Source: an uncultured Methanomicrobiaceae archaeon (GTDB lineage Archaea > Halobacteriota > Methanomicrobia > Methanomicrobiales > Methanoculleaceae). Taken from it: a DNA stretch of 64,000 nucleotides. The notes beneath the pieces were generated by a model. The model saw nothing but the letters and a program-made list of their open reading frames with translations. It was not told the DNA's origin and did not search any database. Made by a program: the position numbers and the translations under genes. Location: NCBI GenBank assembly GCA_963826525.1, contig CAWGXH010000004.1:768001-832000 (forward strand), given 5' to 3'. Position 1 is the first letter of the stretch; the number at the start of each line of letters is the position of its first letter. This document shows, one piece after another, positions 4,388-64,000 of the stretch.

Positions 4388-5546
4388 ATGGGCATTCTGG
4401 ATGCATTCTTCGGATCGAGTCCGGAGGCTCTGATCGGCCAGGGACGCGTGTACGCCGGGAAGGGGGTGTATGAGGAGGCACTCCGCTGCTTCGACGAGGC
4501 GCTCGGGCTCGACCCGAAAGCGACCGCCGCGTGGTACGAAAAAGGATGCGTCCTCAGCCTGACCGGCCGGCACCGCGAGGCGCTCCAGTGCCTGTACACC
4601 GTTATCAGAAGCGACCCGAAGCATACGGCGGCCTGGAACCGGATGGGGCTTGCTCACCGGGAGCTCGGAAGTCACCAGGACGCCCTGCAGTGCTTCGAGA
4701 GGGCCGCCCGTATCGCCCCCGAGGATGCTGAGGCCTGGAACAATATGGGTCTTGTCCTGATGGAGATGGGGAAGAACGAGGATGCGCTCCGCTGTTTTGG
4801 CAGGAGGGTCGCCATCACCCCCGGGAGCGCTGCGTCGTGGTATCGGAAAGCAGATGCCCTTCGTGCCCTCGGCCGCTACGAGGACGCGATCGAGTGCTAC
4901 TCGGCGTACCTCGGCCTCTTCCCGAAGGACGGCGGTGCATGGGTTCGTCTTGGGTGCACCCTCCGGACGGTGCACCGCTATGCGGAAGCCGTCTCCTGCT
5001 TCGACCGTGCGATCAAGATTGATCGCGGCGATGCCGGCGCCTGGAATGAGAGGGGTGTCACCCTCAAGAAGGCAGGGGATATCCGGCAGGCGCTCCGATC
5101 CTTTGACCGCTCGCTGAAGGCCGATCCGGAGAACGCCGTGGTCTGGGCTAACAAAGCCCTGGTTCTCCATGACCTTTCCCGGGACGAGGAGGCCGCTGAC
5201 TGCTACCTGCACGCCCTCGGGCTCGACCCTGAGAACACCGACCTCCTCTACCGGCTCGGGACGACCTACGACGGTCTCGGGCAGCGAAGCGAGGCGCTCG
5301 CGTACTATACCCGGTACCTGAACGTTCGACCGGAGAACGGCTATGCCTGGCTCCGCACAGGTATCGCCTTCCAGCAGGAGGGGGATCACGCCATGGCACT
5401 CCGCTGTTTTAAGAAGGCGCTCTCTATCGACGGGAATGATGCCGATGCCTGGCACTACCGGGGTCTTACGCACCAGAGTCTCGGTGAAGAGGCGAAGGCG
5501 GAGGCGTGTTTCCGGAAAGCACGCGAGGCGATGCTGAAGTACCTGA
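4388..5546 (+). CDS. Tetratricopeptide repeat protein (about 11 TPRs)
   Basis: Repeated AW.xKG...EAL.CF..AL..DP units. The likely true stop is AAG TAC (c) TGA at 5544-5546; the ORF-track read-through to 5812 overlaps the opposite-strand gene. Confidence 0.85.
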
Positions 5547-5556
5547 TCGCTGCCGC

Positions 5557-5868
5557 TTACATCCTGTTTACGGCCTCTCTTCCGGTCATCCCGGGTTCGA
5601 CACGGTGCTGGACGGCATGCAGGTTGGCCGCCTTGACCTCGCCGTCGAGGAGGTCGTCGATGCTCTCGATTGCCATTCCTTCTCCGGCGTGCACGATCGC
5701 TGCAGGAACCCCGAGGTTCTCGAGCGCTTCGATATCGAATCCTGCCGTCCCGATCATCCCGGTCTCGGTGACGACCGCCATCAGTTTTGCCGGCCCTACC
5801 GGGATGACGTAGCTGTAGGCGTCTTTATACGCGAGCCTGATTCGCTCGTGCATCATCTCCTGTTGCAT
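5557..5868 (-). CDS. YunC/DUF1805 family protein, copy 1
   Basis: GMIGTAGFDIEAL...PAAIV...IDDLLDGEV...GMTGREAV pattern. Confidence 0.75.
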   Translation of the reverse strand: MQQEMMHERIRLAYKDAYSYVIPVGPAKLMAVVTETGMIGTAGFDIEALENLGVPAAIVHAGEGMAIESIDDLLDGEVKAANLHAVQHRVEPGMTGREAVNRM

Positions 5869-5996
5869 GGCCCCCGGGGTGGGTGCGCACGGTAATAAGC
5901 CTTATGCCCCGCCCGGTCCGGGACGGCAGCATCACTCTTATTACGTCTCCGGGCGCACGTTCGTGCGACCACACCGACGTGGCAGGCATCTGTGCT

Positions 5997-7082: not shown

Positions 7083-7090
7083 TCGCTGCC

Positions 7091-11430: not shown

Positions 11431-12557
11431 TCACAGCACCAGGTACCTCCGTATCCGCTCGAGAGGGAGATCAAACTCTTTGCCGCGGGCGATGGCGCGG
11501 AGGTTGCCGACCTCGTACCGTTTGTGTTCGAGATACGAGAGGATCGGAAGCGCCGAGAAGGCGTGTCGCCGCGCCATTCTGTCCATGCGGTGGAGCCGTA
11601 CCCGGGTTATGGCGACCTCGATCTCGTGACCGGTACGCTTCCGGGCATGCCACCGCTCCCAGATCCGTTCCGCCGCCGCCTCCTGGTCGAGCGACTCGTC
11701 CCCGCGGACCTCCCGCAGTGCACGGGTGAGGATCGGGAGGATATCGGTCTGTTTGAAGGCGTTGATGAACTCTTCGCGCCTTTCCATGCTGTACATCCGC
11801 TGGAAGACCTCGATCGGGATCTCCCCCCCCGGAATCATGCTCCTCCGGATAGTCCGTATGTCGCAGGCACCCTTCCCGCAGCGAAGCCGCATGAGGTTCT
11901 TCATGTTGGTGATATCGATCTCGAAGCGGAGGTAGCGGGCGAGAACATCGCCGCCTCTGACACCGCCTCTTATATCGGCGAGGAGATCGGCGTAGGTACC
12001 TGCTTGTAGAGTTCGTTCTCGAGTTCTGCAAAGGCACCCTTCTCCTCGCACGACCGGTAGTTTTCGGCGATGACCGGGGCGAGCACCCAGCCCCCGAGCT
12101 CCTCCGCCACCCGGTCGCATGACGCCAGATCGAGGAGGTACTCGAGGTGCTGAGGGGGATCTCTCCTGCGGGGACGATGTACCTCCCGTATCTGCTCCCG
12201 TGGGATATCGTGCTCGATCCCCCGGAAGATCGCCATGACGTTTGAGATATCCCACCGGTTCAGGTACCGGGAGACGAGCGTGTGGAGGTCTCCCTGGCTG
12301 ATCCGGAGCGCGCTTCGAAAGGTGCGTGCCAGGTTCCGATTGAGGGCGGCCTCGATGAGATCGGTACCGGAGAGGGTCTGTGCAAGCCCGACGATCTCCT
12401 CGCCGTAGTCACCCTTGCTGAGAAAATGAGCGATCTCGGGGAGGCTCAGGTGAAGAATCCGTGTGTATTCCTCCCGGGGGTAGAGCAGCGTTTTGCGCAC
12501 CCTGAATCTGGTGCAGACATAGATGCACCCCGGACTCGGAAAACCGCCCGTTATCAT
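11431..12557 (-). CDS. atpC: A/V-type ATP synthase subunit C (AhaC; orphan copy, frameshifts near 12000 and 12150-12180)
   Basis: YVCTRFRVRKTLL, IEAALNRNLA, YLNRWDISNV, FEIDITNMKNLMR, YLEHKRYEVGNLRAIARGK. Confidence 0.82.
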
Positions 12558-12627
12558 CTCTTTTTCTCCTCCCTGACGGCGGTTTACTACGAAATGCCGT
12601 GGAAACCCCGCCTTCCGTCCACAGGGG

Positions 12628-13024
12628 TTACTTCCCGTCCGCGAGTGCGAGTATTCGTGCCGCAAGGTGAGCGGCATTTTCACCGTTATCCACGCCGACA
12701 CACGCAACCGGGACACCTTTCGGCATCTGAACGATGGAGAGGAGTGCGTCAAACCCCATTAAAGTACCGCTCACCGGGACACCGATCACCGGCCGGGTGG
12801 TCTTCGACGCGACCACGCCGGGAAGCGCTGCCGAGAGCCCGGCAATAGCGATGAAGACCCGGCAGGGGCTCGACCGGATATACTCGTCGAGGCGGTCGGG
12901 GTCGCGGTGGGCGGAAACCACCTGGAAATCGTAAGAGATATGTTTCTCCTGCAGGACTGCAAAGACCTTCTCTGCGATCACCCGGTCCGATGCGGACCCA
13001 CACAGGTACTGCTACGTCAGCCAT
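12628..13024 (-). CDS. purE: PurE (AIR carboxylase / N5-CAIR mutase); indel at ~13005
   Basis: [54 protein letters not shown]. Confidence 0.93.
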
Positions 13025-13180
13025 ATGGTTCATGCATATCTGCTGATGGGTCATTAACGCTGCTCTTTGTCATCGCCCGTCATCCTGCGAATCTGTGGAA
13101 GGATGACCTTGATATGAAACGAGATCCAATTAGGTAACCTGAAGAGCTCCAAGACAATCGTATCTACGGACTGATCTGCA

Positions 13181-14766
<1,586 letters not shown>

Positions 14767-14826
14767 CGTAGAAACGTGAAGGATATCAGCAATAAGATGC
14801 CAAACGATACCAGAGGAAGATAGAGC

Positions 14827-15234
14827 ATGACCGTCAAACTGGGTTTTGTGGTGGCGGAGTTCAACCGGGACATCACCTACATGATGGAGATTGAGGCCCG
14901 GGAACACGCCGCGTTTTTGGGTGCGGAGGTAACGGAGACGATCTACGTCCCTGGTGCCTACGATATGCCGCTTGCGATCAAGAAGCTGCTTTCGGCGGGA
15001 AACGTCGATGCAGTGGTCACCGTCGGGTGCGTCATCGAGGGCGCCACCCAGCACGACGAGATAGTTGTGCAGCATGCGGCGCGAAAGATCATCGACCTCT
15101 CGCTTGAGTTCGGAAAGCCTGTCGCCCTCGGTATCTCAGGGCCGGGGATGACCAGGCTCGAGGCGACCGAGCGGATCGATTATGCAAAGCGTGCCGTTGA
15201 ATCTGCCGTGAAGATGGTACAGCGATTGCAATGA
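14827..15234 (+). CDS. ribH: 6,7-dimethyl-8-ribityllumazine synthase
   Basis: [43 protein letters not shown]. Confidence 0.95.
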
Positions 15235-16361
15235 GGAGGCTCTCCGAGAAGGTTGCCGGTATTGCACCGTCCGCCACGATTGAGATCTCGAATGCGGCGA
15301 AACGGATGGTGCAGGAGGGCATCGATGTGATCAGTCTCAGTATCGGAGAACCTGACTTCGATACCCCGAAGCATATCACCGATGCCTGTATCGATGCCCT
15401 GCGCCGGGGGGAGACGCACTACGCCCCAAGCCAGGGCATCCCCGAACTGACGGCGGCTATCGCCGGGAAGATCACGAGGGAGAATGGGTTTCCCGCCTCG
15501 CCCGACCAGGTGATCGTCACCTGCGGGGCGAAGGATGCGATCTACGAGGCGATGGAGGCGGTAATCAACCCCTGTGACGAAGTGCTCATCCTCGATCCCG
15601 CATGGGTCTCGTACGAACCCTGCGTCCAACTTGCGGGAGGGACGACACGGCACCACGCCGTCGACCCGGAGACATTCCAGCTCGACGACTCCCTTCTCGA
15701 GGCGGTGAATGGGAACACCCGCATGATCGTGGTGAACTCGCCCTCGAACCCATCGGGAGCGGTGCTTGACGAGCGTTCCCTGCGGCTCGTCGCCGATATC
15801 TGCACGGACCACGATATCATCGCACTCTCCGACGAGATCTACGAAAAACTCGTCTACGAAAAAGAGCACATCTCGCTCGCAAGCCTCGGCAATATGGTCG
15901 AGCGGACGATCACGATCAACGGCTTTTCCAAGGCCTACGCCATGACCGGGTGGCGGGTAGGGTATGCCGTCGCTCCCGAACGGATCATCCGCCAGATGAA
16001 CAAGGTACAGCAGCATACCATCTCGCACCCGGCCACATTTGCGATGTTCGGGGCTGTGGCGGCGCTGACGGGAGATCAGCGCTGTATTGAGGAGATGCGG
16101 CGTGAGTTTCTGCAGCGGCGCGATTACGTCATCGCCGCACTGCACGGGATGGGGTATCGGACGGCTCCGGCAGACGGAGCGTTCTACGCCTACGTGAAGG
16201 TGGAGGGCGACGATACGGAGATCGCCCGCCGGTGGCTCCGGGAGGCGCATGTCGCGGTCACGCCGGGCTCCGCGTTCGGGACACCGGGCTGGGAGCGGCT
16301 CTCCTATGCGACGTCGATGGCAAACCTCAAAGAAGCGATGTACCGGATCAGCACGGTCTGA
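15231..16361 (+). CDS. Class I/II PLP aminotransferase (aspartate aminotransferase-like)
   Basis: [38 protein letters not shown]. Confidence 0.92.
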
Positions 16362-16374
16362 TCCGGATCTTTTT

Positions 16375-18037
16375 TTACCCCTGCGGCGAAGGAGCGGAGC
16401 TCAGACGTTCAAAGCACCGGTCTGCCTCCTCGGTTCTGCCGAGACGCATGAGCGCAAGACCCTTCACCCCGATCAGGAAGAGATTGTCGGGGTCGTGCGT
16501 GAGCGATTGCGTATAGCACTCGACGGCAGGTTCGTACCGCCGGAGCATCATCAGCGTATTGCCCCGAGCGGCGAGGGCGCCTGCATGCCACCTGTCCAGG
16601 GCCAGTGCACGGCCGAAGCTCGTGATCGCCTCGTCGGTACTGCCTGAGGATATGCAGCACGAGCCCCCTCCGGTACCACGCATCCACGTTTTCCGGGTTT
16701 CTGCCGAGTTCCCGGTCGTAGCAGGCGAGTGCCTCGTCGTACTGCTCCGTGATACAGAGCAGGTCGGCTCTGTTCTTCCGGACGCCGGGGCTCTCCGGGT
16801 TCATCTCGAGCGCCTGGTCGTAACAGGTGATCGCCTCGTCGAAGCGTCCGAGATGGCAGAGGGCGTTTCCACGGTTGTTCCATGCCGCGATACTCCCCGG
16901 GCTCCGCTGGAGCCCCTCTTCGTAGGCGGCTGCCGCCCGGTCGTAGTGCCCGGTGAGGAGGAGTGCCTCCGCTATGGTCAGCAGCGCTCCGGCGTGGTTC
17001 CGGTCGATCTTCAGAGCATGGTCGCAGCATGCGATCGCCTCATCGTAGCGCTTCAGTTGGAGCAGGGCCAGGCTCTTGTGATGCCAGATATCGGGGTTCG
17101 CCTGCTCAATCTTCAGGGCATGGTCGTAACTGCCGATTGCCCCGTTATACCGTTGCAGGCGTGCAAACGCGAGGCCGCGGTGGTGCCAGGCAGCAGCAGC
17201 ATAACCCGTATCGATCCGGAGGATGCGGTCGAAGCAGGCGATCGCCTCCTCGTCCCGCCCGAGGTGCTGGAGCACGAGTCCCTTATGATACCATGCCCTG
17301 ATATCTCCCGAGTTGAGAGCGAGCACCTGCTCGAGGCTGGTTATCGCCTCGTCCGAGCACTGCAGGCGTTCTGCAGCGACTCCCCTGCCGTACCAGGCAC
17401 CCGGATGGTCGGGCTGTATCCTCACGACCTGATCGAACGATCGGATCGCCGCCTCGTCCTGTTGCAGGATGAGCTGGAGTTTCCCCTTCTGGAACCACGC
17501 CTCCGTATGATCCGGATTGATCGTTGTCACTGCATCGAAGCAGGCGACGGCATGGCCGTACTGTTTCGCCAGGATAAGCGCCGACCCCTTCTCGAACCAC
17601 GCATCGATGCAGTCCGGCCGTATCCCGATCGCCCGGTCAAGGGAGAGGAGTGCCTCCTCGTGGCGCATAAGGCAGGTGAGCGCTTTTCCTCTGGCGCACC
17701 AGGAGGCAGCGTCCTCGGGGTTTCCTTTGAGCACCTGATCGTAGGCTGCTATCGCATCGGCATACTGCCGCTGCCGGTGGAGGTGCTGGCCTCTGCCCCG
17801 CCACGCCTCTGCAAGGCCCGGATCGATCTCGACCGCCCGATCGAACGAGACTCCGGCGTCGTCGAACCGGCCGAGAGACCGGAGCGCTGCTCCCCGGGCG
17901 GACCATGCCTCTGCGTGCTCCGGGTCTTTCTCGAGCACTCTGTCGTAGCACCGGACCGCCTCTTCGTATTGTCCCTGGCCGGCATGCTCGAGACCTCTGC
18001 TCTGCCATGCGTCGGCACCCCTCCGGGAGAAGACCAT
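16375..18037 (-). CDS. Tetratricopeptide repeat protein (about 16 TPRs); indel at ~16637
   Basis: Continuous TPR units. The frame continues DEAITSFGRAL... after CAG TAC (c) GAC. Confidence 0.87.
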
Positions 18038-18270
18038 GAGTATGTGGTGACATAAGCTCATGAGTATAAATAGATATCAGTATCCGGGCGCCGTTCGCAT
18101 CGGCTCGTTCCGGATCCTGCCCCCGGGGAGAGGGCGCCTGTCTCTCTGGAGACCTTCGGGCGTCTTTACGGTCCTGAAGCGCATCTCCCGGCTCCCCGAT
18201 GCATTTGGTAACCTATACTATCTTCTGCGACAAAACCGACTATAAGGAGGGCCATTTCCGGCTGGTATCC

Positions 18271-18936
18271 ATGAAGCGAATCCGTGAACTCCCCGATCTC
18301 GACCGTCCCCGCGAGAAGCTGGCGAAAAACGGGCCTGCATTCCTTTCAGAGACGGAACTTGTGGCGGCGATCATAGGAAAGGGCACCCGGGGGCGGGACG
18401 TCTTCCTGGTCGCCTCCGAGATCGCCCGGCATCTGCAGGCGACGGCTGCCGCTCTCTCGTATGACGATCTGATGACGATCCAGGGGGTGGGATCGGCGAA
18501 AGCCTGCCAGATCGTGGCCTCTTTCGAGCTTGCCCGGCGATACCTGGATGCCGATCCTCGGGGGCGGAGGATCGGGTCTCCCTCGGACGTGCTCCCACTG
18601 GTCGCCGACCTCGCGGAGAAACGTCAGGAGTACTTCGTCTGCGTCACCCTCAACGGGGCCGGGGAGGTGATCTCCCGGCGGACGGTCACCGTCGGGCTGC
18701 TCAACCAGAGTCTCGTCCACCCTCGCGAGGTCTTTGCCGATGCCATCACCGACCGGGCAGCTTCGGTGATCCTGGTGCACAACCACCCTTCCGGCGCCCT
18801 CGAACCGAGCCAGCAGGATATCGCCATCACCCGCCAGCTCGCAGAAGCCGGATCAATCCTTGGTATTCGCGTTCTTGACCACCTTATCGTCTCGAGGAAA
18901 GGGTATGCAAGTTTGAAAGAACTCGGGCATCTCTGA
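18271..18936 (+). CDS. radC: RadC family (JAB/MPN domain) protein
   Basis: DRPREKL...G...LS..EL.A, GLLNQSLVHPREVF, ILVHNHPSG...PS.QD, VLDHLIV. Confidence 0.92.
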   Translation: MKRIRELPDLDRPREKLAKNGPAFLSETELVAAIIGKGTRGRDVFLVASEIARHLQATAAALSYDDLMTIQGVGSAKACQIVASFELARRYLDADPRGRRIGSPSDVLPLVADLAEKRQEYFVCVTLNGAGEVISRRTVTVGLLNQSLVHPREVFADAITDRAASVILVHNHPSGALEPSQQDIAITRQLAEAGSILGIRVLDHLIVSRKGYASLKELGHL

Positions 18937-19303
18937 ACTCCCGCTCTCGTTGGGCTACGGTATCGTGCGGAGATATATACCTTCGGTCATGCAGATCTTC
19001 AGGGAGCCGGGCGTTTCTGCAATAGTACCAGACCACGCCTCAGGAGGGAGAGAAATTCTCTCGAATAATGCCTCTTTTTCGGGATATTCGGCATGGAAGA
19101 AGATTCTTTTGGGGAGAATGGTCAATTTATATCATCTGCCCGATATAATCGGATGTGTATCCGGCCGAAAGGTACGATGTCGCATCCGATCGGATTACCT
19201 GCAGATATATGGGAAAGAACCGGGTTTCCGGGGCGGCCGCCCCGGTCATCCCGTCGAAGGGGAGAGATGTACGATAGACAGGCGCGGATCCGTTGAGAGA
19301 GCA

Positions 19304-22300
19304 ATGAATGCACGGCCGCTTGAAGAGGAGATCGAGTCCGTTCGAAGACGGCTGGATACGCTGAGCCGAGGGCCATATCCCGATAGGTCGGAGGGTCTCG
19401 CAGGAAAGGTTTCCGGCCTCCTTGAGGCACTGATAGCGGAGCGGGATGAGCTCAAGGAGATGAACGCCGGACTCGAGCGTTCCCTGGATGCCGCGGAGAA
19501 AGCGCTGCAGCATTACCACGATCTCTTCACCTCAGCTCCAGAGGTCTATCTCGAAACCGATTCGTTCGGAATTATCACGGCGGCAAATGCGGCGGCAGAG
19601 ACCTTTTTTGGTCTTTCGGGCGATACGCTGGTCGGAAAGCACCTTCTCCTCTATATCTCGCCGGAGAGCCGCAAATCCCTCCTCTCTGCGATCACCCGGA
19701 TACACGGCGGCGCGGAGAAGCCGTCATGGGAAGGGACGCTTCGACAGCCAAACCGGGAGCCGGTAGCGGTCGCCGGAACGGTCGCCGCCGCCTATGCCCC
19801 CGACGGTGCGCTCTCGAGCCTTCGCTGGATATTGCGTGATATCACCCGAGAACGGGCGTCCCGCGAGAATGCCAGGGAGAGCCTCGATCTCCTTGAGGGA
19901 ATCTTCGAAAACCTCGGTGATATCGTCGGGATTCAGACGCCCGAGCGGAGGATCATCCGCTACAACCGTGCGGGGTACGAGAGCCTCGGCGTGAAACCCG
20001 AGGAGATCATCGGCAGGAAGTGCTACGAGGTGATCGGGCGCTCCTCTCCCTGCGCGATCTGTGCAAGCGCCCGGGTGCTCGAGACCAGGAAGGCCGAAGT
20101 CGTCGAGAAGTACGTTCCCGAGCTTGGACGGCACCTTGAATGCCGGGCAAGTCCTGTGCTGAACGCCGAGGGCGAGGTGACGATGATCATCGAGCAGATC
20201 ATCGATATCACCGATCGCGTCTCGGCGGCCGAGGCGCTCGAGCGGGCGAATGCCTATAATCGGAGCCTCATTGAGGCGAGCCCCGATCCGATGGCGGTCG
20301 TCGACCCTGATGGGATCGTTACGGACGTGAATGCTGCGGCGGAGACCATCACCGGGAAGACCAGGGACGAGATTATCGGGACAGAGTTTACCGGGCACTT
20401 CACCGATCCCGGGGTTGCCCGCACCGGTTTCGAGACGATTTTTGAGGCCGGAACGGTGCGGGACTACCCGCTCGAGATCCGGCACCGGGACGGGCACATA
20501 ACCCCCGTCCTCTGCAATGCCTCGGTCTTTCGGGGTGGAAACGGCAGTATTGTCGGAATAGTTGCTGCTGCACGGGACGTCACCGAGCTTCGTCGGGCTG
20601 AGGAGGCCGTCAGGGAGAGCGAGCGGCGGTACCGGCAACTCATCGAAAATCTCAACGAGGGGATCTGGCAGACCGACCCGGAGGGTGTCACGACCTATGT
20701 CAACCCGCAGATGGCGGCACTCCTCGGCTATACCGTCGAGGAGATGCACGGGATGCATCTGTTTGTGTTCATGGACGAGGCCGGCGTCGAACAGGCGAAG
20801 GCAGGGCTTGATCGGAGAAGCCGGGGCATTCGGGATCAGCGCGAATTCACCTTCCTCCGGAAGGATAAAAGCCATGTGCGGACGCTTGTATCGGCCGCCC
20901 CGCTCATCGACGATGAGGGAGTCTACCGCGGGTCTATAGCGGCCGTCCTCGATGTTACCGAGCTGCACCGGGCGGAGAGGGCTCTCCGGGAGAGCGAAGA
21001 GCGGTACCGCTCCTTCGTCCAGAACCTCCAGGGGATTGCGTTCTACGGGACTCTCGATTTCCGGCCGCTCTTTCTTCACGGGAGCGTCCTTGAGATCACC
21101 GGGTATACCGAGGGAGAGATCGTCGGGGGCGTTAAACGCTGGGAGCTGTTAATCCACCCGGACGACCGCGAGCGGATGGCGGAGAGCACCCAACAGCTCA
21201 CCACTACCCCGGGGTACATCTCGAACCGGGAGTACCGGATCATCCGCAAAGACGGCGCTATCCGGTGGCTTCGGGAACTTGCCCGCAACGTCTGCGACGA
21301 AGAAGGGTATCCGGTCAGGATTGAAGGGACGTTCTACGACATCACGGATCGGAAGGAGGCGGAAGAGGCGCTCCGGGAGAGCGAGAAGAAGTACCGGGAT
21401 ATCACCCGGCGAAGCTTCGACATGATCTACACCTGCTACCACCGGGAGGGGATTACCTTCATTACCCCGGCGGTGGAGCGGATCCTGGGCTACACGCCGG
21501 AGGAGGTGGTCGGGACCGTCTGCAGGGATTACGTCGCCCCCGAGAGCAGGCTGGTCTGGGAGAAGGCCTACCGGACGATCACCGCCGGCATCCCGGTCGA
21601 GGGTGTTCGGATCAGGTTCCGCCGAAAGGACGGGACATATGCGTTCGTCGAGCCTGAATGAGTCCCCCATCTTCAGGGACGGAACGGTCGTCGGCGTCCA
21701 GGCGGTCGGCAGGGATATCACCGAGCGAAAAAAGGCGGAAGAGGCGCTCCGGGAGAGTGAAGAGCGGTTCCGGAGTATCTTCGAAGAGTCTCCGATCGGC
21801 ATTCAGGTCTACGACGCGGGGGGCAGGCTGCTCACCCTCAACAATGCCTGCATCGGCATATTCGGTTTCTACGACTGCAATGACCTGCAGGAGTTCAACT
21901 TCTTTGGAGACCCGAACCTGCCGGAGGCGGAGATCCGGCACCTGATGGGCGGCGAGGTCGTCCGGTGCAGGATACCCTATGACTTTGAGGAGGTGAAGCG
22001 GCGGAACCTCTATAATACGACGCGGTCGGGGTGCATCTTCCTCGATGTGCTGATCACGCCGATCAGTCCGCCGGAGGGGGACGGGGCACCGGAGTCCTAT
22101 CTGCTTCAGGTTCAGGACGTCACCGAGCAGGTCAGGATGGAGGCGCTCAAACAGGAGGCGTATGAGCGGATCAATAAGAACATCGAGCAGTTTGCCATCC
22201 TCGGCGATCACGTCCGCCAGCCGCTTCAGGTGATTCTGGGTCTCTCGGAGCTGATCGAGGACGATCGGACGGAGAAAATTATTGACGAGGTACGGAGAAT

Positions 22301-22380
22301 CAATGGGATCATTAAACAGGCTCGATCAGGGCTGGGTCGAGTCGAGGAAGGTTCGGGAGTTTCTGCAGAGAAATGAATAG
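19304..22380 (+). CDS. Cytoplasmic multi-PAS sensor with terminal HisKA-like helix, no HATPase (indels ~21652, ~22320)
   Basis: N-terminal coiled coil, about 7 PAS/PAC units (DITE/DVTE...ALRESE linkers), ending NIEQFAILGDHVRQPLQVILG...LDQGWVESRKVREFLQRNE*. Confidence 0.8.
21350..21745 (+). repeat. PAS-encoding cassette, copy A (near-identical to 24643-25035)
   Basis: Shared text such as TTCGACATGATCTACACCTGCTACCACCGGGAGGGGATTACCTTCAT...GGCGTCCAGGCGGTCGGCAGGGATATCACC. Confidence 0.92.
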
Positions 22381-22418
22381 GAGTTGCCGGACGATGGCCA
22401 TGTCGTCGGGGGTGCATA

Positions 22419-22907
22419 ATGCGTGATCCGGAACGCCTCGAAAAGGCGTTGCACCATCCGGACTCCGAAGTCCGGTGGACGGCGGTCCTGCTGCTCGAAG
22501 AGGCGCATACCGACCGGGCGACCGAGCTGCTTACCGAAGCACTGAAAGACGATTATCTCAGCATCCGCTGGCGCTCAGCCGTGGCCCTCGGAAATATCGG
22601 CGACCCGCGGACAGTCGGGCCTCTTGTGGAAGCCCTTGAGGATGAGAGCAAACACGTCCGGGAGGAGGCGGCGGTGAGTCTCGGGAAGATCGGCGATCCC
22701 CGGGCGGTCGACCCGCTCGTCCGGCGCCTGCAGGATCGCGCTCTTGCCGTCAGGATCGCGGCGGCACGGGCGCTGGTGACCATCGGGGGGCCTGCACGCC
22801 CGGCGCTCGTCGGCCTCTCGATAACGGGCGACGAACCGCTGCGGCTGGCCGCTGCTGACATCCTGCAGGAGATGGAGGAGCGGAGGCTCCGGCAGAGAGC
22901 CCGGTGA
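22419..22907 (+). CDS. HEAT/PBS-lyase repeat protein
   Basis: L.D....VR..AA..LG.IGDPRAV.PL repeats. Confidence 0.85.
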   Translation: MRDPERLEKALHHPDSEVRWTAVLLLEEAHTDRATELLTEALKDDYLSIRWRSAVALGNIGDPRTVGPLVEALEDESKHVREEAAVSLGKIGDPRAVDPLVRRLQDRALAVRIAAARALVTIGGPARPALVGLSITGDEPLRLAAADILQEMEERRLRQRAR

Positions 22908-23257
22908 GGATGATCGGTATGGAAGGCGAGGTGTTGATCGAATGGAGGCGGCCGGCGCCTTCCCGGTCTCCCGAGAGGGCTGTGGCGTTCCGGGCGGTGC
23001 TCGAAGATCTCCGGAGCCGGCTTGAGGAGCGGGGTATCGGGGTGACGGTAACGGAGACGCTGCTTTCCGGGGATGCCGCGGGGCAGGTGCTGATGAACGG
23101 TATTCCCTTAGAAGACCTCGTCCCGGTGCAGGGGCGGGAGGAGGGGTGCAGCAGGTGTATGGGCGGCGGTGCCGGGTGCGGCCAGCCTGTCTATGAAGCG
23201 GTGTCCGCACCCCTCCTCCGCCTCGCGGCACTGCGGGCATCCGGCGTGAATCAGTGA
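22904..23257 (+). CDS. DUF2703-like small protein
   Basis: LIEWR, L.ERGI.V...ET, VLMNGIPLEDL, CxxC...C...YEAV...LLR.AAL. Confidence 0.55.
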   Translation: MRMIGMEGEVLIEWRRPAPSRSPERAVAFRAVLEDLRSRLEERGIGVTVTETLLSGDAAGQVLMNGIPLEDLVPVQGREEGCSRCMGGGAGCGQPVYEAVSAPLLRLAALRASGVNQ

Positions 23258-23369
23258 AACGACAGGACTATCCCGGATTCTCTTTGGATAGGCTCTTCTG
23301 AGGTGGTTTTCCAAGCGACATTATTTTATATCGATTAACGTCGTTTCCACTATTTAGGTGTCTGTCCGC

Positions 23370-26300
23370 ATGCCCTCCACGTCCACCGCCGTTCCCGGTC
23401 GTGTCCTCTACGTCGACGACGAACTTCAGCTGCTCGAGTCTGACGAAACTCTTCCTCGAGCGGACAGGGGATATCGCCGTCGATACCACCAACAGCCCGG
23501 AGGAGGCTCTTGAGAAGGTCGTGTCCGGGCGGTACGATGCGATCGTATCCGACTACCAGATGCCGGGGATGGATGGTATCATGCTCCTTGAGCGGATCCG
23601 CTCGGGAGGGTCGGATATTCCGTTCATCATCTTCACCGGCAGGGGGCGGGAGGAGGTGGCGATCCGGGCGCTGAACGCCGGTGCCGACTTCTATCTCCAG
23701 AAAGGCGGCGATCCAAAGGCGCAGTTCGCCGAGCTTGCGAACGCGATCAGGCAGGCGGTCGGGAGGCGGCGAGCGGAAGTGGCGGTGCGCGAGAGGGAGG
23801 CGGTACCTGTACAAGACGCAGGCTCTTGCCAGCCTCGGCAGCTGGAGCTCGATCTCGAGACCGGCCGGCTGATCTGGTCGGACGAGACCTATCGCATCTT
23901 CGGCCTGGATCCGCAGGAGTTCCCGGCAACGTACGAAGCCTTCCTTGACACCGTCCACCCGGACGACCGGGCTTTCGTCGACGCCGCGTACTCGGGATCG
24001 ATCGCGGACGGGAAGGACAGCTGCGAGATCGAGCACCGGCTTGTGCGAGGGTCTGCCGGGGAGATCCGCTACGTCCACGAGAAGTGCGAGCATCAGCGTG
24101 GTGAATCCGGCAGGGTCATACGTTCTCTCGGGATGGTGCACGATATCACCGACCGCAAACGGGCAGAGATTGAGCTGCAACGAAAACATGCCGAACTCGT
24201 GGCCGCGTATGAAGATCTCACCGCCATCGGGGAGGAGCTCCGGTCGAGTTTCGACGCACTTGCCGCAAACCAGCAGCGCCTTCGGGAGAACGAGGAGCGC
24301 TACCGGCGTATCTCCGACAGCATCTCCGACGTCGCGTTCTCCTGTCTTCGCAAGGATACGGGCGAGTACGCGCTCGACTGGCTGGCCGGCGCCGTCCACG
24401 AGATCACCGGGTATACCACCGACGAGATCCTTGCGGAGGGGTGCTGGAAGTGCATTGTCTACCCAGAGGATCTTCCCCTCTTTGAGCGGGAGGTTCTCTC
24501 CCTCTCTCCCGGGGACTCATCCGCCTGCGAGCTGCGGATAGTCCGCCCGGACGGGTCGGCACGGTGGCTGCACATCTCCACGAGCTGCACCGGAGACGGG
24601 AACGCCACCCGGCTGCATGGCGGGTGGCAGGATATCACCGGCCGGAAGGATGCGGAGGAGGCGCTCCGGGAGAGCGAGAAGAAGGACCCGGGATATCACC
24701 CGGCGAAGTTTCGACATGATCTACACCTGCTACCACCGGGAGGGGATTACCTTCATCACCCCGGCGGTGGAGCGGATCCTGGGCTACACGCCGGAGGAGG
24801 TGGTCGGCACCGTCTGCAGGGATTATGTCGCCCCCGAGAGCAGGCTGGTCTGGGAGAAGGCCTACCGGACGATCGTCGCCGGCATCCCGGTCGAGGGTGT
24901 CCGGATCAGGTTCCGCCGAAAGGACGGGACATATGCGCTTGTCGAGGCTCGAACGAGTCCCCCATCTTCAGGGACGGAACGGTCGTCGGCGTCCAGGCGG
25001 TCGGCAGGGATATCACCGCGCGGAAAAAGGCGGAGGACGCCCTGCGGGAGCGGGAGCATCTCCTCAATAAGGTATTCGAGATCCTGCCGATAGGGGTCTG
25101 GCTGGCGGACCGGGAGGGCAGGCTCGTGATGGGCAACCCGGCGGGCAAGAGGATCTGGGGTGCCGAACCCCTGGTCGCCCCGGAGGAGTACGGCGTCTTC
25201 AGGGCTCGACGGCTGCCGTCCGGGAAAGAGGTCGCTGCCGATGACTGGGCGCTCGTCCACACGATCGAGCGAGGTGCGACGGTCGCCGACGAGCTGCTGG
25301 AGATCGATGCCCTCGACGGTAAGAAGCGGGTCATCCTGAACTATACCAGCCCCGTCCTCGACGAAGATGGTGGGATCGCGGGTGCGGTCATCGTCAACCA
25401 GGAGATCACCGATCACTGGCTCGCGGAGAAGGCGCTACGGGAGAGCGCTGAGAAGATGGAGAGCATCTTCCGTGCCGCACCCGCCGGGATAGGAGTGGCG
25501 GTCGACCGTATCTTCACGGAGGTCAACCTGGGCTTCTGCGAGCTCGTCGGCTACGCCCGCGACGAGCTCGTCGGCCGGTCGGTACGGCTGGTCTATCCGA
25601 GCGATGATGATTTCGGATTGATCGGCGAGATGAAGAGCAGTCAGATTGAGAGAGACGGGGCAAGCCGGGTGGAGACACGTTTCCGGCGAAAGGACGGCAG
25701 CCTCATCGATGTGCTGCTCTGCAGCACACCCCTCGATCCTTCGGACCTCTCCCGGGGCGTGACGTTCACCGTGCTGGATATCACCGAACGCAGAGTGATG
25801 GAGCTCGAGATCGCGTTCCATGCCGAAGAGCTCGCCCGGTATTCGAACAGTCTCGCCATGGCGAATCGGAAACTCAACCTGATGAGCAGCATCACCCGAC
25901 ATGACGTCTTAAACCAGCTGATGGTCCTGCAGGGCAACCTTGCGTTTGCGGAGGAGTCGGTACCGGGCGGGGACGTCTCAGGTTACCTTGCAAAGGTGAG
26001 GGATGCGGCTCGCCGGATCCAGCGCCAGATCGAGTTCACCCGGGACTACACGGAGACTCGGTGTCCGGTCGCCTGAGTGGCAGCGGGTCTCGGATGTGAT
26101 CCGGGATGCGGAGCTCGATGCTCTCCCGGTCATCGACGAGACCGGAGGGCTTGTCATCTGCGCCGACCCGATGCTCGGAACCGTCTTTGCAAACCTGATG
26201 GACAACACGATCCGGCACGGGGAGTCGGCGACCCGGATCCGTCTCTCCTGCCGCCCTGAGGAGAACGGCGATATCACTCTCATCTGGGAGGACAACGGTG

Positions 26301-26500
26301 TCGGTATCCCGGCCGGGGAGAAGGAGCGGATCTTTGAGAGGAATGTCGGGAAGAATACGGGGCTCGGCCTCTTCCTGATCCAGGAGATCCTCTCGATAAC
26401 CGGGATCGGCATCATCGAGACGGGCGAAGAGGGGCGGGGGGCGCGGTTTGAGATGCGTGTGCTCCGGGAAGCCTGCCGGGTCGACCGGGAAGAGGCGTGA
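23370..26500 (+). CDS. Hybrid sensor histidine kinase REC-(PAS)n-HisKA-HATPase (several indels)
   Basis: VLYVDDE, IVSDYQMPGMDG, FTGRGREEVAI.ALN.GADFYLQKGG; about 5 PAS; SITRHDVLNQL; NLMDNTIRHG, EDNGVGIP, GLGLFL. Confidence 0.88.
24643..25035 (+). repeat. PAS-encoding cassette, copy B (near-identical to 21350-21745)
   Basis: Direct comparison shows only scattered substitutions and indels over ~390 bp. Confidence 0.92.
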
Positions 26501-26534
26501 GATCGGCTCTCTACCGCTTGGACGCACGCCGGGC

Positions 26535-26810
26535 AGCGGTTGCACTCCTGTTGCACCGCTAGCCGTCATGGTCATAAGGAAAAGGGGTTGTAACGCCCGA
26601 ATATCACTGACGTTTGCACCCATATCGGATTCACAGAGACTCACACGCCCGCCGCCCGCATGCCTGGTGTGCCCTGTGTTCTCCCGGACTGATGCAAAAT
26701 TCTTGTATCTGATTCTACTGTCTTCGTTACAAGAATCATCCGGAAAGGGTCTTCCGGATTTGCACTCTGCCCGTTTTTCGGGCGCAAATGGGGTGCAAAG
26801 GTGCAAACAC
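26535..26810. other. Hairpin-dense intergenic element with six TTGCAC/GTGCAA motifs
   Basis: Inverted repeats at 26535-26560, 26699-26736, 26738-26759 and 26759-26799. Confidence 0.45.
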
Positions 26811-27102
26811 CGGGGCCTGATTCGTCCCGGTCATCGGTGTCACCCGTCTGTTCCTCCATCCGGATATCCCCCTTCGTTGGCCAATTGCGAGAGAGCTCAT
26901 ACTCGAAACGGGGCGTCTCACTCCCGCTCCCGGGAATGTATCCGGGATACCGGAACCGGACGAAAGAATCGTGGCATCCTTCTGTTCTCCCCGCAAACCC
27001 TCCCGGTTTCCGCGAAAGTCTCCCGTCTCCCCGGTGCGCCGGAGGGCCGCCGGACCAGTCTAATATAGAAGGTGTGACATATCTGATCAACACGTGGTTG
27101 TC

Positions 27103-27738
27103 ATGGCTGCAACAACAATTGACCTATTCCTCAATCCGAGGGCATTCTTTGACGCAAAGATGGCCGAAGGCGAGAGCCTGAAGTACCGGCACTGATCGTG
27201 CTTATCATCGGGGTTATCAGTGGGGTCTCGGCCTATCTGGTCTCCGGGCTGACTGTCCACTGCTCCCTCCGGAGGCAGCGTCATTCGGCTCTTTGATTGC
27301 TATCTTCGGCGTAACTGCGGCACTGATTGGTGCCTTCGTGATGTGGGCTGTCATTACGGCGATCTTCTACGGTATCTCATCCCTCTTCGGCGGCGAGGGT
27401 TCGTTCAGGCGTACCCTCGCGTTCGTCGGTTATGGGTATGCACCGCAGATCCTTGGCGGACTCATCTCAATGGTCTTCACATTTCTCTTCGTATCCAGTT
27501 TCCAGGTGCCGAGGGTTGCCGACCCGAATGAGATTGCGAACGTCGCTATGCAGCCTGATGCAGGATCCTCTTCTCCAGGTCGCTACGCTCATCGGCATTC
27601 TCTTCATGCTCTGGAGCGCGAATATCTGGATCTTCGGTGTCAGATCCGCACGGATCTCTCTCGCTGAAGAACGCCGCGATCACGGTCGGCGTTCCGGTGG
27701 CGCTCTATGTCCTCTATGTCCTCTTCAACCTGTTCTGA
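27103..27738 (+). CDS. Yip1 domain membrane protein (indels)
   Basis: LFLNPRAFFDAK...SL..PAL.V; GGEGSFRRTLAFVGYGYAPQI; WSANIWIFGV. Confidence 0.75.
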
Positions 27739-27748
27739 GGTCTACTCT

Positions 27749-28882
27749 ATGAAACTCTCACATCTTTTCATCATTGCCGTTCTCCTCGCCGCCGGGTTTC
27801 TGATCCCTGCGGCCAGCGCCGGGACGGCGGACGTAACGGTTACCTCCTACCAGATCGATCCCCCCTCGCTGATGCGCTGGGATACCGGCACGCTCACCGT
27901 CACCGTCAAGAATAACGGTGCCGAGAGCGTCGCCATCAGGAGCGCCCGCCTCTTCGGAGACGATATCCAGGTCCTGAGCGATGCCTACTCCTCGGTCGGC
28001 GATATCGGGGCAGGCACTACCAAGGAGTTTACCTTCACCGTCCGGGCAAACGCCCCCGACGCCACCTACTACCCGAAATTCGTCATCGACTTCAGGGATG
28101 GCGGGAGCCTCCGCTACCCGATACCGGTTCGGGTGGAGAACACCGGGGTGCAGGTCGCCGTCGCGGCACAGCCGAGTGCTTTTGCAGAAGGACGGGAAGC
28201 GGACGTCACCCTCACAATCGGCAACCCCCGCTCCACCCGGGTGACCGGGGTTACGGTCGTACCCGAAGGTGACGGCTTTACCTCCACACCGTCGAGCGCT
28301 TTTGTCGGGACACTCGATCCCGACCAGGCTGCGCGGGTGATCTTCAACCTCACTCCCAATACACCGACGGATATTGCGTTTCGCGTCATCTTCCGGAACG
28401 GTGTGAATACCCACGAGACCGTGCTCACGCTCCCGATCGCCTTCACGAGCGATAAGCGGCGTGCCGTTCCCGTGCTCACGAACATCGAAGTGGAACCGGT
28501 CGCCGGCGGCTACCGGGTGACGGGCGACGTGACCAACGCCGGCCTTGAGTCGGCACGGTCGGTGATCGTCACGAGCGGCGAGCCCGCGACACCGATCGAT
28601 CCCTTCCGGGTCTACGTCGTCGGGACGCTCGACTCCGACGACTTCTCGAGTTTCGAGGTGACCTTCAGGGCGGAGACGGGCGCGACGGAGATACCGCTCG
28701 TCATCGAGTACCGTGACGGCGACGGCAACGTCTATACGGAGCAGGCTATGGTGAATATCGGCACGACGACCGTTCTGCCGCAGCAGCAGAACGAGACGCT
28801 CCCCGGGGTTGCCATCGCCGTTCTCGCCCTTGTGGCAATCGGGATAGCGGGCGCCGTCATCTATTCGTGGAGAAGGGCCTAA
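27749..28882 (+). CDS. COG1361 S-layer-like exported protein with C-terminal TM anchor
   Basis: Signal peptide, Ig-like beta repeats (VG.L.PD/DSDDFSSFEVTF), C-terminal TM plus RR. Confidence 0.8.
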   Translation: MKLSHLFIIAVLLAAGFLIPAASAGTADVTVTSYQIDPPSLMRWDTGTLTVTVKNNGAESVAIRSARLFGDDIQVLSDAYSSVGDIGAGTTKEFTFTVRANAPDATYYPKFVIDFRDGGSLRYPIPVRVENTGVQVAVAAQPSAFAEGREADVTLTIGNPRSTRVTGVTVVPEGDGFTSTPSSAFVGTLDPDQAARVIFNLTPNTPTDIAFRVIFRNGVNTHETVLTLPIAFTSDKRRAVPVLTNIEVEPVAGGYRVTGDVTNAGLESARSVIVTSGEPATPIDPFRVYVVGTLDSDDFSSFEVTFRAETGATEIPLVIEYRDGDGNVYTEQAMVNIGTTTVLPQQQNETLPGVAIAVLALVAIGIAGAVIYSWRRA

Positions 28883-28887
28883 TATCC

Positions 28888-30727: not shown

Positions 30728-30789
30728 GATAATCACCTATCTCCGCCTTTTTTTGAGAGTGTCCGAACGACGCAGCGTCCCCTGCCGGT

Positions 30790-31110
30790 CACGCATTCGG
30801 TATGACGGGTGTACCTGTGCGGTCGCTGCGGACGAGTTCGTCTCCGAGATCTTCACGAACCTGATCGGCAACGCCGCCAAGTTCGGCGGCCATGAGACAG
30901 AGATCGGTACCCTCGTCGAGGATTCGGGGCCTGGGATCTCCGACGCCATGAAGGCGAAGTTCTCCCGCCGGTTCTGCCGGGGAGAAGGGTTGAAGAGCGG
31001 GAAGGGTTTCGGACTGTATATGTCCCGCCTGCTTGTGGGTGCTACGGCGGGAGCATCGTAGCGCGTGATCGGGTTGCCGGCAACTCCGAGCTCGGTGCGG
31101 CGATGGTCAT
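30790..31110 (+). pseudogene. Degenerate HATPase_c fragment of a histidine kinase
   Basis: ADEFVSEIFTNLIGNAAKFGG, EDSGPGISD, GKGFGLY; no start or sensor region; internal deletion relative to the 57540-57900 paralog. Confidence 0.65.
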
Positions 31111-60500: not shown

Positions 60501-63345
60501 TTCTGGAGTGCCAGATCTCGTAGCACCTGCCGGTTGTCAGGTCGTCGATCGTCCGTCCGACACTCTCTGCAGCAGCCCGGTTCGCCCACCGGATCGAGAG
60601 GTTCGTATCATAATAGACGAAGAGTTCTCCGGTGGAATCGAGGATGAGGGATTTTTCCCGCTCCGACCGGATGAGTTCCTCTTCCGCCCGCTTCTGTTCG
60701 GTTATGTCGATTCCCGAACCCATCATGCAGAGCGGTTTCCCTGCGCCGTCCGCGACGAGGGTGACCGAGGCCTGCACGGGGAAGGTGGAGCCGTCCTTCC
60801 GTCTGGCTGTAAGCTCCCCCGTCCAGCTGCCGCGCTCCCGCACAGTCTCCGGAACCTGCCTGTACCGCTCCGGATCCGCCCAGAACCGGGATGTCGGGCT
60901 GCCGACCATCTCGTCCGGGTTCGAGTAGCCCCACATATCGAGGGTTGCCTGGTTCACGTAGGTGACGCTTCCCGCAAGGTCGGTAAGCGTGATGGCGTTC
61001 AGAGAAGAGGCTATTGCCATATCCTTGATCCGGAGTTCCTTCTCGGTCAGCCGCTGCTCCGTAATATCGCGGGCTATGGAGAGAATCTGGTCGACCGTCC
61101 CGTCCCGGGAAAAGACCGGAATGGACCGGGAGTCGTAGTAGTGCGTCTCGCCGTCGCGTGCGTAGGTGAGTTCCTGGATATGCGGTCTTCCCGATGCGAC
61201 CACCGCATCGATGATCCGGAGTCTCTCGGAACCCCCCTCCGGGGGAAGATCTCTCTGATACTCTTTCCTATGATATCTTCGGGGTTCTTTCCGAGCCCTT
61301 CTGCTCCTCTCGCATTGAGATAGAGCAGCGTCCCGTCCCGGCCAGTTAATGAGATGATGTCGGGCGATGCCTCCGCAAGCGTCCGATATCGCCTTTCGCT
61401 CTCTATGAGAGCCAACTCCGCCTTTTTGCGCTCGGTAATATCCCGGCCGACCGCCTGCACGCCGATGAGCGTTCCGTCCTGCATTATCGGGGTTTCAGAG
61501 AGATCAATTACGGCAACAGTCCCATCTTTGCGCCGGAACTCGATCTCGGCGCCCGCAATACTTCGACCCTGTTTAACCGCATCTGCGCACCGCTGCCAGG
61601 CGGGGAGGCTTGAGGGCATGACATACTCACGGCACTGGGTGCCGACGATCTCTTCGGGCGCGTAGCCGAGGATCTTCTCCACCGCCGGTGAGATGTAGGT
61701 CACTCCTTCGCTTCGGTAGCAGGTGTAGATCATATTGGAGTGGCGCTGAGCCATTCCCCGGAATTTCTCTTCGCTCTCTCTGAGAGCGGTCTCCATCCGC
61801 TTTCGGTCGGTGATGTCGGCGCCGGATGCCATAAAGCAGATCGGCTCTCCTGCCTCATCGGCAACAACACTGGCGGAAACCTGCACGTCAAAGAGCGTGC
61901 CGTCCTTTCTCCTGGCGGTCAGCTCGCCACACCAGGCATGGTTTCGCCGAATCGCTCCGATGACGTCCCTGGTCTGATCTTCGTCCGGCCAGAGTTCCGC
62001 GGGCGGTCTGCCCCGGATCTCATCGAGATCCGTATAGCCCCACATATCGAGCGCGGATCGGTTCGCGTAGATCAGGTTCCCGCCGGTATCGACAATAGCA
62101 ATGGCATCAAGCGCCGTAGCGATCGCTTTATCCTTGATCCGGAGTTCCTCTTCCACCCGCTTCCGCTTCGTGATATCACGGCTGATCCCCATCAGGCACC
62201 GGATCGCTCCGTCTCGTCCCGGCACCGGGATCAGCCGGGTATCGATCCACATGTCGCCGCCGGGCAGAGGCAGCCCGGTCTCCTCGGTCACCGGCATACC
62301 GGATGCTGTCGCGTGCTCCACCTGCCGCATCCACGATTCGGCTACCTCCGGAGGGAAGATCTCGCGGATGTGCTTCCTCCCGATGAGGCGGGCAGGTTCT
62401 GTCTGCAGCCATGCCGCTCCGTACTCGTTTACATACAGGACATCCCCGCCCGTCGTGATCAGGAAGACGGCGTCGTGCGCCGACTCCGCGAGCGTCCGGT
62501 AGAGGCGTTCGCTCTCTGAAAGTGTCTCTGCAATCCGCCTTTGTGGCGTAATATCAATGCAGGATGAGAGAAAGCAGAGCGGGTTGCCGGCTTCATCTGT
62601 TACCCTGTGCACAGCGAGCTGGACGTCCATCGGCTCTCCGTCCTTCGTCCTGCCCTGCAGTTCTCCAAACCATTCGCCTTTCTGGTGTAACTCCTGGATT
62701 GCCGCTGCTGTCTGCTCACCATCGGACCAGTACCTGCAGACCCTGGGTACCAATAAGTTCACCGGGATCGGTGTATCCTCCCATCTCGAGCAGAGCACGG
62801 TTGACGTAGACGATCCTGCCCGCGAGATCGGTGATGACAATGCCGCTCTTTGCCGTGCTCATCGCCGTTTCAAGGATGCGCAGGTAATCTTCGGCACTTT
62901 TGCTGCCCGTGCTCTCCGTCCCGATGCCGGGGATTCGCATTGTTCGCTCGCCCTCCTCGCCTTCGCAGGTCAGGAACCATAGGAGCCAGTACGTGTGGCC
63001 GGGCGCGGTTTCAACAAGCCTTCCCGAAAAATCGTAGCATCGCCTCGTCCCTGACGAATCCGTCTGGAATATCCCGCGAAATTCCTTCTCTCCCCTCTGC
63101 AGCCGTTCTGTTACAGTTGTGGCCCACCCTTCGCCGCCGGGAGTGTCGGGTTCGTGGGGAGAAGAGAGCGCTCCGAGATCCATCCCGATGAGTTCTTCTC
63201 TCCGGGTTCTGGTGATCTCCTCCATGGCGACACTCATCCAGGCAATCTGCATAGACTCGTCTACGAGGAGCAGCTTCTCGCTATCCAGTGCTTCAAGCAG
63301 TGTGAACGCAGGATTGACGGGTTCACGGGTGTCCAACCGGCGCAT
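57540..63345 (-). CDS. Giant cytoplasmic histidine kinase: about 10 PAS + 2 GAF + HisKA + HATPase (several indels)
   Basis: Consecutive ORF pieces join at indels; YLDILTHDIRN H-box, NLIGNAVKFG, DTGPGIP, GEGLGL; no TM or REC seen. Confidence 0.85.
59560..60310 (-). repeat. Tandem duplicated PAS units inside the giant kinase
   Basis: Two units LIEA(S/N)PDPLVTISPDGRITDVN.ATEA.TGY.REELIGTDFSDYFTDP...VRDY.LEIR...PVLYNASVYRD; shared nucleotides such as GGGTCGGTGAAGTAGTCTGAAAAGTCGGTGCCGAT. Confidence 0.88.
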
Positions 63346-63484
63346 ACCGTCACCATCTTCAGGATACCGGTTCGGAAGGTCCTGAATAACAGGGGGAATG
63401 CAATGGATCTATATAAAATATGTGTATCGGCACCGGGAGCGGTTCTCCGATGCCGTTCTTTTTTAGGCCGCATGCAGGCAGGGT

Positions 63485-64000
63485 TCAGGACGAATCTCGC
63501 TGTTCCGGTGCGGCATCCTTCTCTATGAGGTGCTCCAGAACACCGACGACCTCGCTTCCCTTCTCCCGCGCCTCGGCAAGCGCCGTCGGGTGGCCACGGA
63601 TGCCCCCGTAGCGATCCATATCGTTTGCGATGATATTGTCGTAGGTACTCAAACCCGGTGGTGTTGAAGAAGGCAGTCATGGCCGGGAAAGCGGCGTCGA
63701 AGACGTTATCCCACCCAAGGCCAGCCGTTGAGAGAAAGATGCCCTTGTGCCGCATGATATGGGCGTGGGAGAAATACAGATCCTTTACGATGAACTTGCG
63801 CGCCCAGAGATACTGCGCCCGGTCGATCACCCCCTTGAGTTCGGCCGTAATGCCCATCGAATAGATCGGGGAGGCGACGGCCAGGCAGTCGGCGGCGAGG
63901 ATCTTCGCAAAGAGGTCGTCGAGGGCGTCGTGGACAGTGCACGCTCCGGTCTTGTGGCAGACATTGCACCCTCTGCAGGAGGAGTAGTCCAGGCTCTTTA
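63485..64000 (-). CDS. Iron-sulfur flavoprotein (Isf/flavodoxin family), 5' end beyond the window; indel ~63645
   Basis: CRGCNVC..TG.C, ASPIYSMGITAELKGVIDRAQ. Confidence 0.85.

Follow-up and report, generated by a model that had tools for sequence, protein, structure and literature searches.

Frameshifts at GTAC and AGCT in a Methanoculleus genome assembly: probable long-read consensus errors that trace a predicted m4C methylome

Why should genes of a methanogenic archaeon, housekeeping genes among them, be interrupted by single-base frameshifts at two short palindromes? We addressed this question for a window of 64,000 nucleotides (nt), the whole stretch of DNA that was analysed, which corresponds to positions 768001-832000 of contig CAWGXH010000004.1 (hereafter referred to as C4) in assembly GCA_963826525.1 (hereafter referred to as G000; 3.06 Mb in 16 contigs, the largest of 1.86 Mb). 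The source names of close homologues place the host in the genus Methanoculleus, the top match being a protein of M. taiwanensis that is 94% identical in sequence. The original prediction, made from the window, was that the single-base indels cluster at GTAC and AGCT, that they are assembly errors, and that they betray methylation of both motifs by enzymes encoded elsewhere in the genome. The analyses described below lead us to consider it highly probable that the frameshifts are long-read consensus errors, likeliest from nanopore sequencing of native DNA, and not mutations, and that they mark N4-methylcytosine (m4C) introduced at GTAC and AGCT by two orphan methyltransferases.

As a reference, we used the genome of a different species of the same genus (G001; completeness 99%), which is collinear with window bases 3-63998 at approximately 87% nucleotide identity, apart from two window stretches that have no G001 counterpart. 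The host assembly has a completeness of 87.6% and a contamination of 5.3%. A gapped blastn comparison of the window with G001 gave 82 gaps, 40 of which lie inside coding sequence (CDS). The genes of G001 were called crudely, as the longest open reading frames (ORFs) with a G+C content higher at the third codon position than at the first and the second (GC3 > GC1 and GC2), and a few of the 'CDS' and 'intergenic' labels may consequently be wrong. Over the 52.6 kb of window DNA aligned to G001 CDS, a single base was inserted in the host sequence at 28 places and deleted at 9.

For the enrichment test, each inserted base was deleted by a script and the 4-mers spanning or abutting the resulting junction were counted, with run ambiguity allowed; all positions of the same CDS-aligned DNA served as the null. 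In the window, 18 of the 28 one-base insertions touched GTAC (12) or AGCT (6), while 0.79 were expected (p = 1.3e-21), and the clustering was thus as originally claimed. Because the hypothesis had arisen from the window itself, we moved the test to DNA outside it, namely a 400-kb region of G001 (C1:400001-800000), 349 kb of which aligns to G000:C4:894721-1283056. The comparison with G001 extended over 449 kb in all. In the CDS of this 349-kb region, G000 had 170 one-base insertions and 46 deletions relative to G001. AGCT was touched by 24 of the 170 insertions (2.28 expected, 10.5-fold, p = 1.7e-17) and GTAC by 23 (2.75 expected, 8.4-fold, p = 1.0e-14), which placed them first and second, respectively, among the 136 canonical 4-mers. 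The words ranked after them (AGTA, CAGC and GAGC) overlap them, and the two motifs kept the top ranks under a null confined to G/C runs. When gap placement was given a tolerance of +/-2 nt, 69 of the 137 isolated insertions were compatible with one of the motifs, against 15.1 expected.

The remaining 68 isolated insertions yielded no convincing 4-mer or 5-mer (best p values 0.006-0.014 over 134 and 512 tests). Deletions were weakly enriched at the two motifs (3 of the 34 isolated deletions, 0.70 expected, p = 0.03). Substitutions that destroy or create GTAC and AGCT were roughly symmetric between G000 and G001, and neither motif was among the 15 most asymmetric 4-mers. GATC had been named as a possible third motif. 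The indels at 40205 and 59377 that had been assigned to it are real, but the motif itself was touched by 13 of the 170 insertions in the 349-kb region (7.06 expected), with a p value of 0.026 that is uncorrected over 136 tests and hence not significant; GATC was therefore dropped as an error motif. As a separate matter of word usage, CTAG is strongly avoided, with an observed/expected ratio under a second-order Markov model of 0.24 in the whole of G000 and 0.16 in 500 kb of G001; AGCT is also below expectation by this measure (0.68 in G000 and 0.79 in G001), as are GGCC and CGCG.

We then considered whether the insertions behave as errors. Thirteen of the 50 window orthologues of G001 genes are broken, including those for A-type ATPase subunit C, purE, a PALP enzyme, chorismate mutase, a Na/Pi transporter and a TPP enzyme; purE bears out the earlier remark that housekeeping genes are affected. 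When only the 18 bases that touch the motifs were deleted from a copy of the window, one frame covered 90% or more of 45 of the 50 G001 orthologues, compared with 37 before. In a tblastn search with the 1025-amino-acid (aa) PAS-domain protein of G001, the alignment changes frame at 21653 and again at approximately 22319, with the flanking codons conserved in the shifted frames. The window contains two copies, 96% alike, of part of this gene, and one AGCT site common to them is corrupted differently: G001 has GAGCTG, copy 1 has GAGCCTG and copy 2 has GAGGCTCG. A GTAC site that both copies have is corrupted in copy 2 only. The reverse reading, in which G000 is right and G001 suffered deletions, was rejected, as the intact ORFs are those of G001 and the low completeness is that of G000. 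Taken together, the copy differences, the one-sidedness of the insertions, the restored frames and the low completeness argue for consensus errors, in agreement with the original attribution to the assembly. The presence of a 1.86-Mb contig in a 16-contig, 87.6% complete genome suggests that long reads were used.

The anatomy of the inserted base was examined in the window and the 349-kb region pooled, which gave 35 GTAC events and 30 AGCT events. At GTAC, 32 of the 35 events double an outer base, G in 16 and C in 16, and this equality is the pattern of a strand-symmetric error at a palindrome. At AGCT, the extra base, which may be G, T, A or C, lies between the G and the C in 21 of the 30 events. 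When the GTAC events were oriented on the doubled C (n = 29), the next base was T in 18, G in 11 and A or C in none, and the 5' flank was A in 17. Owing to these flank preferences around the doubled base, 31 of the 35 GTAC events fall within AGTAC or GTACT. The enzymes M.MjaV and M.MhuII are listed in the parts of PMC11033074 used here as m4C methyltransferases of GTAC, and M.MhuIV and M.Mma5219II as those of AGCT. Given the positions that M.MjaV/M.MhuII and M.MhuIV methylate according to these parts, the extra base sits, on either strand, on the cytosine reported as m4C.

If methyltransferases are responsible, their genes should be somewhere in the genome, and the prediction had located them outside the window. 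A profile search of G000 did find candidates elsewhere, namely five genes with the N6_N4_Mtase domain (PF01555), three intact and two split; it found no C5 methyltransferase (PF00145). In two of the intact genes, at C3:214067-215038 and C4:525210-526112, motif IV is of the SPPY type (TSPPYNIG and TSPPYNFG in their translations), and in the third, at C4:1217545-1218570, it is DPPF. The SPPY type of motif IV is typical of m4C enzymes. The domain matches of the two SPPY genes (C3:214094-214807, 153 bits; C4:525381-526040, 135 bits) are far above the Pfam cut-off of 26.7, their products are 28% identical to each other, and both genes are conserved in the other two genomes of the genus that were compared, G001 and G002. 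The two split PF01555 genes (L037-L040) lie at G000:C9:13589-15305 and G000:C3:585432-587055; one is long, of the DPPY type and on a 23.7-kb contig, and the other is of the SPPY type with motif I upstream. The specificities could not be read from annotation, as NCBIfam gave only generic 'adenine-specific DNA-methyltransferase' matches far below the cut-offs, and the homologues have generic names.

A survey based on REBASE (PMC10609329), which covers 519 complete genomes of archaea, describes the Methanomicrobiales as rich in persistent orphan m4C methyltransferases and assigns GTAC to groups HG10 and HG18 and AGCT to groups HG11, HG16 and HG19. The portion of its Table S3 drawn on here lists, for all six complete Methanoculleus genomes, cluster 358 in HG3 (GATC, N6-methyladenine (m6A)), cluster 301 in HG10 (GTAC, m4C) and cluster 357 in HG16 (AGCT, m4C). 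Cluster 301 is listed there for Methanocaldococcus jannaschii as well, and the text of the survey places persistent AGCT-m4C groups also in ammonia-oxidising archaea. The same table gives the Methanogenium organophilum genome with HG10 and without HG16, and Methanoregula with HG16 and without HG10. The C3 SPPY protein shares 68% identity with a protein of Methanogenium organophilum, and the C4 SPPY protein 68-71% with proteins of Methanoregula. By phyletic pattern only, the C3 gene would probably be the HG10 (GTAC) member and the C4 gene at 525210-526112 probably the HG16 (AGCT) member. G000 also has two D12-class (Dam-like, PF02086) genes, at G000:C4:904245-905053 and G000:C3:530686-531388 (L041-L044), each split in two frames; here too the assembly has probably introduced errors, in the genes from which GATC m6A would be expected. 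As far as sequence comparison goes, the GTAC and AGCT methylome suggested by the error footprint is supported by its agreement with the published Methanoculleus methyltransferase groups.

The sequence of events that we propose is as follows. The Methanoculleus host most likely carries GTA(m4C) and AG(m4C)T, m4C being the presumed base. The enzymes responsible would be two orphan methyltransferases of the beta class, conserved and encoded outside the window. Disturbance of the signal by the modified base would, in some contexts, lead the base-caller or polisher to add one base at the methylated position, which would turn GTAC into GGTAC or GTACC and AGCT into AG[N]CT. Errors at approximately 3-6% of the sites would suffice to break roughly one-quarter of the window genes.

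Among the alternatives, the one that survives best is that the same artefact arose on another long-read platform (PacBio CLR or HiFi) or during polishing, through m4C-dependent polymerase kinetics or a mis-trained polisher. We regard this as improbable. The nanopore platform is itself a deduction of ours, and m4C is detectable by single-molecule real-time (SMRT) kinetics, with PacBio methylomes employed in the survey excerpted above (PMC10609329). Long homopolymers contribute little, only 5 of the 34 isolated deletions lying in runs of at least 4, and such a scarcity is atypical for old nanopore chemistry. Counting against PacBio, no consensus errors of this platform are known to depend on motifs. 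For nanopore sequencing, motif-bound consensus errors are documented in the cited parts of PMC6591954 and PMC11610603.

A second alternative, to which we give little credence, is that GTAC and AGCT are contexts inherently hard to base-call whatever their modification, so that the clustering tells nothing of methylation. Methylation at both motifs is indeed inferred, the errors depend strongly on the flanks, and only a few percent of the sites are affected. Against this, the two motifs are exactly those of the persistent m4C groups in six of six complete Methanoculleus genomes in the survey table as cited, candidate methyltransferase genes are present and intact, in either motif the extra base coincides with the position reported for m4C, and no other palindrome, 4-mer or 5-mer is enriched. 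The weakest alternative, genuine indels produced by motif-targeted mutagenesis or pseudogenisation in the lineage, can be set aside almost entirely: although no single site is contradicted by read data, it would require 13 inactivated orthologues out of 50 within 64 kb, including A-ATPase subunit C, purE and chorismate mutase, and is at odds with near-identical copies that differ in the corruption of the same site, with an excess confined to insertions and with codons that stay conserved in the shifted frames flanking the indels.

Several observations weigh against the proposal that consensus errors at m4C explain the frameshifts. Only about 3-6% of the sites are affected (of 866 for GTAC and 652 for AGCT within 305 kb of CDS), and the strong AGTAC/GTACT flank bias needs a context-dependent effect of the base-caller or a motif narrower than GTAC. 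As many as 68 of the 137 isolated CDS insertions lie off both motifs and are left unexplained by it, and GATC, which is also predicted to be methylated, has no significant error footprint. The modification-linked errors reported for R10.4.1 in the relevant parts of PMC11610603 are mainly C-to-T and G-to-A substitutions, not insertions, and no description of insertions at m4C AGCT or GTAC was found in the literature searched. As G001 is another species, indels may in some cases be genuine where conservation is weak. The platform and the error status of single sites are inferred, not read-based. The only public run that was found (X1) contained 0.07 of the sampled words; its short contigs thinly cover 17 of 30 bins in window positions 11501-31500 and bridge no indel site within that interval. 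One 151-nt contig of X1 fits 30541-30675 without a difference from its 17th letter only, the fit ending at the putative AGTCT error. As for the 68 off-motif insertions, 46 lie outside any run, and random consensus errors, real differences and alignment noise are candidate sources.

The individual sites, described here relative to G001, include most of those on which the original prediction was based. Its GTAC sites are all present where it had placed them, and 12 of the 13 carry an insertion of 1-2 nt; the remaining one, 27184, is a 1-nt deletion adjoining GTAC (G001 has GGTACC) in a G001 ORF of only 82 aa, the coding status of which is uncertain. A C is added after GTAC at 3863 (AGTAC[C]G; the site is ahead of the range that the prediction had covered and belongs to a glucoamylase-like (GH15) gene) and at 5542 (AGTAC[C]T, 3 nt short of the stop codon in G001). 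The gene for subunit C (AC39) of the A-type ATPase has GGTACC for GTAC, through addition of a G and a C at 11996-12000, and a C added after GTAC at 12183; a 1-nt deletion within a G run, away from both motifs, lies at 12156. A G is added before GTAC at 13006 in purE (AIR carboxylase), at 16636 in a TPR-repeat protein gene and at 30176 in a MacB/FtsX permease gene; removal of the base raised the single-frame coverage of these genes from 0.87 to 0.99, from 0.84 to 1.00 and from 0.51 to 0.90, respectively. Removal of the C added after GTAC at 32055, in a DUF2953 protein gene, raised the coverage from 0.86 to 0.99. At the junction of an ABC-transporter gene (29508-29513), GGTACC stands for TTACT of G001, with two bases added around GTAC, and a G precedes GTAC at 63644. 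At 56709, in the chorismate mutase gene, the extra G that had been listed under GTAC is present in AGCGTAC, but its removal restores AGCT instead, with coverage rising from 0.57 to 0.98.

Of the 11 sites that had been listed for AGCT, six are insertions at the motif (21653, 22319, 24946 together with 24950, 30541, 45430 and 49232) and one, 51785, is a 1-nt deletion immediately 5' of it. The site at approximately 43550 found no support, as the gap falls at 43543 and G001 likewise has AGGCT. Two more, 23437 and 26055, lie within the stretch without a G001 counterpart (23259-26947), and 27552 is in poorly aligned DNA. In the 1025-aa PAS-domain protein gene, AGCT became AGCCT at 21653, exactly where tblastn passes from frame 2 to frame 3, and AGGCT at 22319, near which it passes from frame 3 to frame 1. 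In the MacB/FtsX permease gene, AGTCT at 30541 is probably AGCT plus a spurious base. Removal of the extra base raised the coverage from 0.81 to 1.00 for AGCTC at 45430 and from 0.78 to 0.99 for AGGCT at 49232, the latter in the TPP-enzyme gene.

The second copy of the PAS sequence (24665-25000) is a partial one, corresponding to a part of the gene at 19304-22377, and may be a real or an assembly duplication. It lies in the stretch 23259-26947, which has no counterpart in the collinear region of G001 except for a paralogous piece at 24631-25055. Here, GTAC was altered to GGACC with an extra C at 24686-24689, and the original reading of this word as a corrupted GTAC is correct, since both the other window copy and G001 have GTAC. 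At 24946-24950, AGCT became AGGCTC by addition of two bases; the same site is AGCCT in copy 1. Two further genes remain broken after the motif corrections. The PALP-enzyme gene has a 1-nt deletion at 40205, away from GTAC and AGCT, which creates GATCC where G001 has GATGCC. The gene for a 1940-aa PAS/GAF histidine kinase has a C added after GTAC at 59075 and at 62733, and its best single-frame coverage rose only from 0.28 to 0.36; it has more indels at 57524, 57537, 57992, 59377 and 61248, of which AGCT and GATC account for a part only.

The main use of these results is as a quality warning for the genome record. Scaling the 47-69 events per 305 kb of CDS to 3.06 Mb gives, as an extrapolation and not a count, several hundred motif-linked frameshifts genome-wide. 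With approximately one-quarter of the window genes broken and hundreds of frameshifts extrapolated, the gene calls, the pseudogene counts and the 87.6% completeness are unreliable until the assembly is polished. The methylome predicted from REBASE (GTAC and AGCT) emerges from the footprint independently, and artefacts of this sort can therefore give a cost-free, indirect indication of m4C motifs. One could go a step further and suppose that the place of the spurious base shows which cytosine is modified, and that the restriction to AGTAC/GTACT might reflect, beyond base-caller context, a GTAC methyltransferase whose specificity in this lineage is narrower or biased by context; we consider this speculative and rather unlikely. 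If true, motif and modified position could be read together from long-read assemblies in public databases, with no need for raw data. The insertion type of error differs from the usual substitutions and may help in the training of base-callers and polishers.

How does this footprint compare with known systems? In the cited portions of Wick et al. 2019 (PMC6591954), methylation motifs are the main source of nanopore consensus errors, Dcm sites (CCWGG) making up approximately 70% of them. Those errors at 5-methylcytosine (5mC) are systematic, dominate what remains after polishing and gather at a short motif whose methylation is foreign to the base-calling model; the present ones would be of the same kind. 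Unlike in the Dcm case as described there, the motifs here are GTAC and AGCT, the modification is presumably m4C and not 5mC, the error is a frame-shifting one-base insertion, the organism is an archaeon and the platform is presumed. The likeness to the R10.4.1 mismatches, as far as PMC11610603 is cited here, would be that modification leaves error-prone sites that survive nanopore-only assembly and can be used for de novo motif finding; the difference is that those strand-specific mismatches are mainly C-to-T and G-to-A substitutions, whereas the footprint here is an inserted base and the substitutions at the motifs are symmetric. With regard to the orphan groups HG10, HG16 and HG3 of the Methanomicrobiales, in the parts of PMC10609329 considered, the two footprint motifs are the two m4C motifs of these groups; beside them, G000 has the two SPPY-type PF01555 and the two D12-class genes, matched to groups by phyletic pattern only. 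Unlike what the HG3 prediction of GATC m6A in these parts might suggest, GATC has no significant error footprint here. The artefact is thus of a known kind and mirrors a methylome that earlier work had predicted for the genus, with no new biology implied, and its insertion type may be a small addition to the artefacts known.

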